IMG/VR virus record: IMGVR_UViG_2703718775_000030
Reading direction: 5' to 3' (one strand)
DNA length: 5,370 bases
DNA from: a virus
Lineage: Duplodnaviria; Heunggongvirae; Uroviricota; Caudoviricetes
Both the position numbers and the translations under genes were made by a program. This document shows positions 1,758-2,193 of the stretch, in pieces (position 1 is the stretch's first letter; every line of letters begins with the position of its first letter). Below the pieces are notes generated by a model, which was not told the origin of the DNA, searched no databases, and saw nothing but the letters and a program-made list of their open reading frames with translations.

Positions 1758-1979
1758 TTAATCCCCGTCCGTTGTTTTTCTTAAAACAGCTTCTGTCACG
1801 AAATCAGCATAGTTAGCGGCAATATCAAGAATATTTAGCCCTGTATCTCTGTGCTCATCAGTGCAAAGAAAGAAAAAAGCCACCCGCATAATTTCAGATA
1901 TTGACGAAAGCGCATCAGCCGCATCATCAGGAACGCCGGAAAATTCTTGTTTCAGGGAATTAAAACGATCATCACGCAT
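1758..1979 (-). CDS. Hypothetical small protein B (73 aa, MRDDRFNSLKQEF...), apparent paralog of the upstream gene A
   Basis: Start chosen at ATG 1977..1979, which overlaps the stop of gene A (ATGCGTGA, 8-nt overlap). Shares the motif PD(A/D)AA(A/D)AL(S/T)(S/T) with A. The ORF-track start at 2027 is less likely. Confidence 0.6.
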   Translation of the reverse strand: MRDDRFNSLKQEFSGVPDDAADALSSISEIMRVAFFFLCTDEHRDTGLNILDIAANYADFVTEAVLRKTTDGD

Positions 1980-2193
1980 AACCCCCCCCATTTTCACAAT
2001 CAGCAACAAGAATATTTTTAGCGTCATTCAGCGACCGCGTTGCGATGTATCGGATACATTCCAGGGCGAACTGTGTCCGGTCTTTCTGTTCTTCTCCCTG
2101 CGCAAGCTCTGCAGTGCATTCAATATCGATAAGCGCGTGCATCAGCGTAGTGAGCGCGGCGGCTGCTGCGTCCGGTGTGGTTTTATTGCACAT
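1972..2193 (-). CDS. Hypothetical small protein A (73 aa, MCNKTTPDAAAAALTTLMHALIDIE...)
   Basis: ATG at 2191..2193 is preceded by AGGAGG with a 6-nt spacer. It overlaps the end of the upstream E/D reading frame by 11 nt. The ORF-track start at 2235 lacks an SD. Confidence 0.65.
   Translation of the reverse strand: MCNKTTPDAAAAALTTLMHALIDIECTAELAQGEEQKDRTQFALECIRYIATRSLNDAKNILVADCENGGGYA

Follow-up and report, generated by a model that had tools for sequence, protein, structure and literature searches.

The 5,370-nucleotide DNA stretch analysed here (IMG/VR virus record IMGVR_UViG_2703718775_000030, Caudoviricetes; hereafter the window) is an Escherichia coli satellite-type island. On its minus strand lie two adjacent 73-residue genes, which we call B and A in their order along that strand. 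On balance, they are best explained as two different α-helical modules of one small acidic protein, not as duplicates of each other. We hold the structural and genetic part of this picture with high confidence. Whether the B–A protein is a protein-binding effector we regard as an evenly balanced question, and the more specific suggestion, drawn from gene position, of an anti-repressor-like target such as a helper-phage or host regulator is tentative and rather doubtful. The two genes are widespread in E. coli yet have no annotation. Two things are new here: the split or fused architecture of the pair, which a hypervariable G tract brings about, and the C4/IsrK–icd control context of the genes.

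Two dissimilar helical modules

The features on which the argument rests are the following.

1972..2193, minus strand: gene B, 73 residues, acidic (isoelectric point, pI, 4.5), predicted two-helix hairpin; matches phrog_5146 and the N-terminal half of phrog_2512
1758..1979, minus strand: gene A, 73 residues, acidic (pI 4.3), predicted all-helical with low confidence; matches phrog_24341 and the C-terminal half of phrog_2512
1972..1979, minus strand: 8-nt stop/start overlap of B and A, ATGCGTGA
1982..1989, minus strand: G8 homopolymer (C8 on the plus strand) directly upstream of the overlap, encoding the Gly-Gly-Gly end of B and occupying the ribosome-binding-site position of A
2146..2175, minus strand: motif PDAAAAALTT, B residues 7–16, at the N-terminal start of helix 1
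1902..1931, minus strand: motif PDDAADALSS, A residues 17–26, at the N-cap, where the first long helix begins

A preliminary description of this DNA had recognised two 73-residue open reading frames (ORFs) with overlapping stop and start codons (B, 2193..1972; A, 1979..1758). The Prokaryotic Genome Annotation Pipeline (PGAP) of RefSeq annotates the same two, and the product name of both is hypothetical protein. Judged by their polymorphism, B and A look translated, because the ratio of nonsynonymous to synonymous polymorphism (pN/pS) is about 0.5 (B 0.50, A 0.46) and drops to 0.15–0.26 in the helix cores; in the hairpin turns it reaches 0.72–0.77. AlphaFold models B as a two-helix hairpin (predicted local distance difference test, pLDDT, 76) and A as three or four helices (pLDDT 64). 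Synonymous diversity is zero at the junction (pS=0.000; 1955–1979, the first 8 codons of A, and 1990–2007, the last codons of B), compared with 0.25–0.59 in the rest of the two genes. Nucleotide-level constraint or recombination may be the cause, and the value is confounded by the exact 17-mer that was used for collecting the loci.

The preliminary description took A and B for tandem paralogues on the strength of a shared PD(A/D)AA(A/D)AL(S/T)(S/T) motif, and left the question to formal alignment. The motif is indeed present in both genes. It is followed by an acidic segment (EEQKD and DEHRD) whose spacing from the motif differs by 3 residues. BLASTP of B against A returned no alignment at E≤100, and the Smith–Waterman score was 31, shuffled sequences averaging 22.7 ± 4.1 (p=0.047), with the comparisons of either protein to the product of the next gene, C, at background. 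When the B and A families were compared with hhalign, only the motif columns (11–12) were aligned, with a probability of 1.2% that dropped to 0.2% once the families were widened by the most divergent members that an exhaustive HMMER search had found. The hhalign score of 10.7 lies among those of unrelated control pairs (9.0–11.3; B/DUF4222 10.8, C/DUF4222 11.3, A/C 10.3). Moreover, the acidic second motif is specific to the window alleles and conserved in neither family, while the PD..A motif erodes in distant members. Because neither pairwise nor profile alignments show significant similarity, paralogy of B and A is refuted as far as sequence comparison can tell, and by the very test that had been proposed for it; the resemblance is no more than what chance would give. 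An ancient duplication, too old to detect, is possible. At the level of fold, both proteins are all-helical, B as a two-helix hairpin and A with three to four helices, and the hairpin is a generic fold.

A 74-residue ORF at 1532..1756, suggested earlier as a more distant relative, turned out to be a masking artefact. A run of 19 N at 1566–1584 replaces 196 bp, made up of gene C's 3′ end and the 5′ half of a DUF4222 gene, and therefore any ORF crossing these positions is artefactual. The 74-residue ORF is a chimera across the mask. The real genes there are C (77 residues, pI 4.7), which is unrelated to A or B, and the DUF4222 gene (99 residues).

1585..1756, minus strand: 5′ part of gene C, 57 codons, cut off by the N-mask
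1395..1565, minus strand: 3′ part of the DUF4222 gene, product basic (pI 10.2); its 5′ part is hidden by the N-mask

B and A were said to belong to no known family, and this held in wider searches. Neither has a match in Pfam, NCBIfam or PADLOC, a profile search of PDB sequences gave nothing at E≤1, and the only matching PHROGs are of unknown function. Among 1.84 billion representatives, the exhaustive HMMER search recovered only 65 clusters at 50% identity, none with a known domain, and a scan of species-representative genomes with the fusion alignment found Shigella flexneri only. The B and A families are thus narrow, being almost confined to Escherichia/Shigella satellites. The genes are not described in the paper on the PICI (phage-inducible chromosomal island) EcCIMP1. 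Nor, to our knowledge, does the literature on PICIs and on those that form capsids (cf-PICIs) describe the pair, no search having been aimed at it.

The G tract and the three states of the locus

The G8 tract, absent from the preliminary description, sits where the two modules meet. In the PHROG scan, B matches positions 1–76 and A positions 78–146 of the 154-position profile phrog_2512. Homology searches likewise returned fused proteins, joined as ...CENGG(G)VMRDDRF... with the join within the G run. The fusion profile matches 567 clusters; the best 120 of these are nearly all 148–156 residues long, and some have 190–260 members.

We assembled 84 related junctions from IMG/VR loci and two RefSeq genomes. 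The tract is G6 in one of them, G7 in 21, G8 in 33, G9 in 14, G10 in four and G11 in two; it is uninterrupted in 75 of the 84, and a few interrupted variants exist. Tract length sets the reading frame. With G8 or G11, B and A are separate genes with the 8-nt overlap; with G7 or G10 they form a B–A fusion with a Gly-Gly linker; and with G6, G9 or G12 B is extended by 7 residues (tail LCVMIVLIP), reading past the start of A. The split state seen in the window accounts for 41 of the 84 junctions, a full-length fusion of 142–156 residues for 25 and the extended B for 17; one further fusion, of 179 residues, carries an internal duplication.

The states are not tied to lineages. Five of nine groups of haplotypes with identical 450-bp flanks are mixed in tract length, all three states occur on every allele background, and the association between state and allele is weak (p=0.07). 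In finished genomes of one clonal O26 lineage, G8 versus G9 is the sole difference, so that B is annotated as 73 or 80 residues while the neighbouring protein accessions are all identical. O26 is a serogroup known for Shiga-toxin-producing strains. Across complete genomes, the exact flanks of the window enclose G7 once, G8 about 83 times and G9 about 92 times, an estimate that subtracts an inferred 274 partial alignments. The tract shares two features with simple-sequence-repeat phase-variable loci: it is a homopolymer of at least 7 nt within coding sequence (G8, in the last codons of B), and its length varies among close strains and shifts the frame. A downstream RNA structure able to stimulate programmed ribosomal frameshifting was sought and not found, the fold of the 87 nt following the tract being no better than that of shuffled sequences (z=0.00).

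In distant relatives that lack a long G run, the two genes are separate, overlap in the same way (8 nt, ATGNNTRA) and have a Shine–Dalgarno sequence or short G run at the corresponding place. In locus L105 the pair is split, with ...GGGGGCGCACC-ATGCCTAA at the junction and ATGTTTAA at the next one. In L106 (CCCCGGGGG...ATGAATAA) 8-nt overlaps flank B on both sides, and in L107 a canonical Shine–Dalgarno sequence, AAGGGAGGG, precedes ATGTGTAA. L104 is fused and has one G fewer than L106 (G5 to G4), making it a second independent fusion. The ATGNNTRA overlaps of successive small genes in these loci lie at the following positions.

L105, 364–371 and 572–579
L106, 5001–5008 and 5227–5234
L107, 126–133 and 370–377

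The C-terminal tails of the distant relatives (...VSHA, ...VHHA, ...HHV) simply encode the ribosome-binding site and ATG of the next gene. Since the distant relatives keep the split pair with the same overlap, the split and translationally coupled arrangement is the usual state. An ATGNNTRA overlap together with a G-rich ribosome-binding site in the last codons of the upstream gene is a family-wide coupling design, and the E. coli G7–G11 tract is an expanded ribosome-binding site that also encodes a glycine linker. Changes in tract length are probably near-neutral toggles of subunit linkage and of the translation efficiency of A.

Pairs that occur both split and fused, so-called Rosetta stone pairs, are classical evidence that the products act together. 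As in such pairs, the same two modules are found here as adjacent genes or as one ORF; the difference is that both states are present in one species and even in one clone, and that a 1-nt change in a glycine-coding homopolymer interconverts them. Because covalent fusion is so widely tolerated, B and A probably assemble into one helical bundle. They also behave as separable modules: in P0282 an unrelated N-terminal domain of about 90 residues is joined to A, and in P0315 and P0326 B is followed by an unrelated C-terminal domain.

Further variation touches both genes. At the hairpin tip of B (equivalent to about 2080–2100), an in-frame repeat varies between KEEREE, KEEREEREE and KEEREEREEREE (P0010, P0017, P0021 and P0031), which makes it a second simple-sequence polymorphism of this gene. 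A truncated allele of A, ending in ...STGLMY* after about 50 residues, recurs in contigs of Shigella flexneri and E. coli (P0144, P0149, P0151, P0005 and P0078). In P0293 the upstream icd-like gene is fused to B by read-through.

Two other accounts of the tract have to be weighed against near-neutral toggling. One holds that it is a phase-variation switch (a contingency locus), or that ribosomes or transcription slip there in a programmed way, so that different B/A products arise and the island population hedges between functional states. The purity of a G7–G11 run of a rare glycine codon, the length variation inside identical haplotypes and within the clonal O26 lineage, and the fact that all three frames are common are what such a switch would be expected to produce. 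Poly-G phase variation is documented in Enterobacteriaceae, at least as far as a preprint on Klebsiella rmpA sets it out (bioRxiv 10.1101/2025.09.12.675794). The island resembles the rmpA type in having a coding G7–G11 run whose length differs among near-identical strains and shifts the frame. It differs in that the shift switches no gene off: two coupled genes become a fusion, or the first gene is lengthened. A has its own ATG and both modules are encoded in every state, so there is no clear ON/OFF; a stable downstream RNA structure is missing; and a ribosome-binding-site role, as seen in the relatives, also explains the G-richness. We therefore consider a switch or slippage site unlikely, and the same holds for the version in which selection maintains a reversible G7/G8/G9 switch between a two-subunit, a fused and an altered-B/reduced-A-translation effector, with a clonal island population carrying pre-existing variants that differ in which helper or host target they engage, or in how they do so. 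Were the tract to act as a switch, phase variation in a phage satellite would, unusually, alter protein architecture and not turn a gene ON or OFF. The other account, that the length differences are mostly sequencing or assembly errors around a uniform G8 split state, is less likely still. Long-read-only and older pyrosequencing assemblies are prone to errors in homopolymers, and otherwise identical sequences do differ in tract length. Against this, about half of the 84 loci are non-G8, non-G8 clusters have hundreds of members from many projects, finished RefSeq genomes have G9 about as often as G8, stable interrupted variants exist, and a distant lineage has its own independent G5/G4 split/fused pair. 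To judge from these frequencies, assembly error cannot account for tract variants on such a scale.

As to what the genes are, tandem diversified paralogues A, B and perhaps C, sensing helper phage or serving as anti-repressor or interference factors, now seem very improbable. The 10-residue motif is common to A and B, is kept by the close E. coli alleles in either family and begins the first long helix of two helical proteins, and the pair occupies the position after C4–icd, which is the slot of ant in P1 and of anrP in Gifsy-1 (PMC4825925). Their similarity is nevertheless no better than that of the unrelated controls, both the motif and the acidic segment erode towards the distant members of the families, C bears no relation to either gene and the 74-residue ORF is an artefact, a helical hairpin is too generic a fold to indicate common descent, and scans of Pfam, NCBIfam and PHROG found no homology to any anti-repressor family. 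The main alternative to a helper or host regulator as target is DUF4222 or the replicase: B–A would then be a replication accessory or copy-number factor, Cnr-like in role, that binds the basic DUF4222 protein or the replicase and modulates initiation. In its favour, B–A remain linked, across one or two small ORFs, with DUF4222 and a replicase even where a DUF927 protein replaces the AAA_25 RepA; B, A and C are acidic whereas DUF4222 is strongly basic; and all these genes are translationally coupled. Persistence with two unrelated replicase families, however, argues against a specific contact with the replicase. Moreover, tblastn against a phage collection that we take to include P4 found no homology to Cnr or any P4 protein, and the variable hairpin tips better fit an external, fast-evolving target. 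We judge a replication role to be rather improbable.

A possible protein-binding effector under RNA control

The features upstream of B that bear on its expression are listed here.

2183..2374, minus strand: icd-like gene, 63 residues (NF033153 phage_ICD_like, E=1.4e-15), with an 11-nt overlap between its stop and the start of B (ATGTGCAATAA, 2193..2183)
2429..2516, minus strand: C4 antisense RNA (Rfam RF01695, 77.6 bits against a gathering threshold of 45), full length, model positions 1–87 of 87
2538..2614, minus strand: isrK-like small RNA or leader with a terminator hairpin (Rfam RF01394, 66 bits), full length
2852..2880, minus strand: candidate sigma-70 promoter of the operon, TTGACA-17-TACTAT, a consensus match only

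At the head of the operon, downstream of the promoter-like site, stand the isrK-like and C4 antisense RNAs, followed by the icd-like ORF that overlaps the start of B. B and A are neighbours in every case, the order being icd-like, B, A, C, DUF4222, replicase. In the reading we favour, derepression of this C4/IsrK-controlled early operon by a helper phage would lead to expression of B–A, and B and A would assemble into a single acidic bundle of helices, whether in trans (split) or in cis (fused). The bundle would then bind another protein, the variable hairpin tips being the contact surface. A protein-binding role is the most likely one because the modules are acidic and helical, carry no enzymatic or DNA-binding signatures and have their most variable residues at the hairpin tips. 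Seen as one protein in two parts, standing where an early operon under C4/IsrK control has its effector, B–A is a concrete and testable candidate for the means by which this family of satellites handles its helper or host.

Three known systems offer comparison. In the immI locus of P1, the order is c4 antisense RNA, icd and ant, and ant encodes an anti-repressor. The window resembles immI of P1/P7 in having a full-length C4-family RNA followed by an icd-like ORF whose stop overlaps the next gene, here B. As judged from sequence, 2429–2614 is an RNA immunity module of the immI/P4-CI type in a PICI-like island. Of the elements of an immI-type locus, the C4 RNA upstream on the same strand and the icd-like ORF are present and an effector homologous to Ant is not: B and A have no anti-repressor match in Pfam, NCBIfam or PHROG. 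The CI-RNA-controlled left operon of P4 is similar in that the whole operon, replication genes included, lies downstream of the RNA. The island differs from both P1 and P4 in the isrK-like element ahead of C4 and in the genes after icd, which show no similarity to Ant or to P4 epsilon, orf151 or Cnr in the phage-collection search, P4 being presumed present there; and P4 has the alpha primase-helicase where the island has a RepA/AAA_25 helicase. We also considered the fusion of about 150 residues as a counterpart of P4 orf151 and rejected it, since tblastn of the 154-residue fusion against 50,697 phage records, presumably including P4, gave no match. A weak c4-a1b1 target-like match lies at 2627..2575.

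The isrK–orf45–anrP region of Gifsy-1 is similar in another respect. It has an isrK-type leader with a read-through terminator, followed by small ORFs with overlapping stop and start codons, and the effector's translation depends on that of the ORF upstream (Hershko-Shalev et al. 2016, PMC4825925). The Gifsy-1 effector is a recognised anti-repressor (PMC4825925), whereas the island has the uncharacterised B–A pair and then replication genes. What the proposed anti-repressor or helper-interaction role gains from these comparisons is positional: after the C4-RNA/icd module, B–A may stand in the slot of P1 ant and Gifsy-1 anrP.

Several points count against the reading of B–A as one protein-binding effector. 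The model of A is of low confidence (pLDDT 64), and fold and sequence searches yield generic or non-significant matches only. Some of the tract-length differences could be homopolymer assembly errors, and the counts of about 83 G8 and 92 G9 depend on the subtraction given with them. The analogy of position to ant and anrP is weak evidence, and the P4 operon under this type of RNA control includes genes for replication control as well. Finally, a frameshift in alpA, the master activator of Gram-negative PICIs, means that the window's copy of the island may be altogether non-inducible.

The host island and its annotation

The preliminary description placed the two genes in a satellite-type element upstream of a replication gene, and the wider context bears this out. 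Read on the minus strand, the window carries an integrase, the frameshifted alpA, the RNA/icd-like region, the small genes and a RepA/AAA_25 helicase.

5370..4129, minus strand: integrase
3632..3427, minus strand: alpA, frameshifted, with a homopolymer run at 3578–3584
1..1398, minus strand: RepA-family helicase (AAA_25), 465 residues, the final gene of the block within the window

The alpA run is an intact A8 in strain 2013C-4187 and A7 in the window and in strain MBT-5; A7 is a second homopolymer indel of the island. In O26 genomes the full island lies at a tRNA-Pro gene between yejM and yejO and continues with terS and a major capsid gene, and because of these two genes and this site it is a PICI or cf-PICI-type satellite. 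It shares with Gram-negative PICIs and cf-PICIs the integrase, AlpA, replicase, terS, major capsid gene and tRNA site (Fillol-Salom et al. 2018, PMC6092414; de Sousa et al. 2023, PMC10085698). It departs from them in that alpA is frameshifted and the capsid module incomplete in the copy matching the window, which stops after the capsid gene beside a yejO pseudogene; for these reasons this copy may be a decayed element. The O26 island ends with terS, the major capsid gene and then directly the yejO pseudogene (L001 4980–7417 / L100 5362–7799), no portal, protease or connector genes being annotated there, and may be a truncated capsid-forming PICI.

The order AlpA, RNA region, icd-like, B, A, C, DUF4222 and RepA is kept across related loci, in which the C slot is occasionally taken by an unrelated small gene; where a DUF927 protein serves as the replicase, B–A are still linked to it and to DUF4222. 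A 1-kb block around the genes matches about 1,500 of 5,426 complete genomes, O26 isolates included.

Two cautions for annotation follow from this locus. Pipelines report three different protein sets for it, and the upstream 'Ash family protein' call overlaps two RNA genes. Both the Pfam Phage_ASH match (about 2344–2626, in ORF 2743..2183) and a PGAP 'ash family' pseudogene overlap the isrK and C4 RNA genes. These calls are probably ORF artefacts, and part of the Phage_ASH Pfam family may be the translation of RNA genes. The match had been considered as a sign that the island already has a derepressor, and was set aside for this overlap.

On the plus strand, ORFs face the operon at 2874–3278: an Arc/YlcI-YnfO-like ORF of 57 residues (2874–3047) and a 62-residue ORF in phrog_21027. 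PGAP annotates neither and calls a long minus-strand 'Icd-like' pseudogene over the same stretch. A hairpin followed by a T-run was seen by eye after these ORFs, at about 3371–3400. In the divergent promoter region between the plus-strand Arc/YlcI-like gene and the minus-strand operon lie operator-like repeats (2819–2877), AATGGTAATTACCATGT and AAGGGTAATTACCATGT, placed 30 nt apart and including 12-nt perfectly complementary arms at 2832–2843 and 2864–2875.

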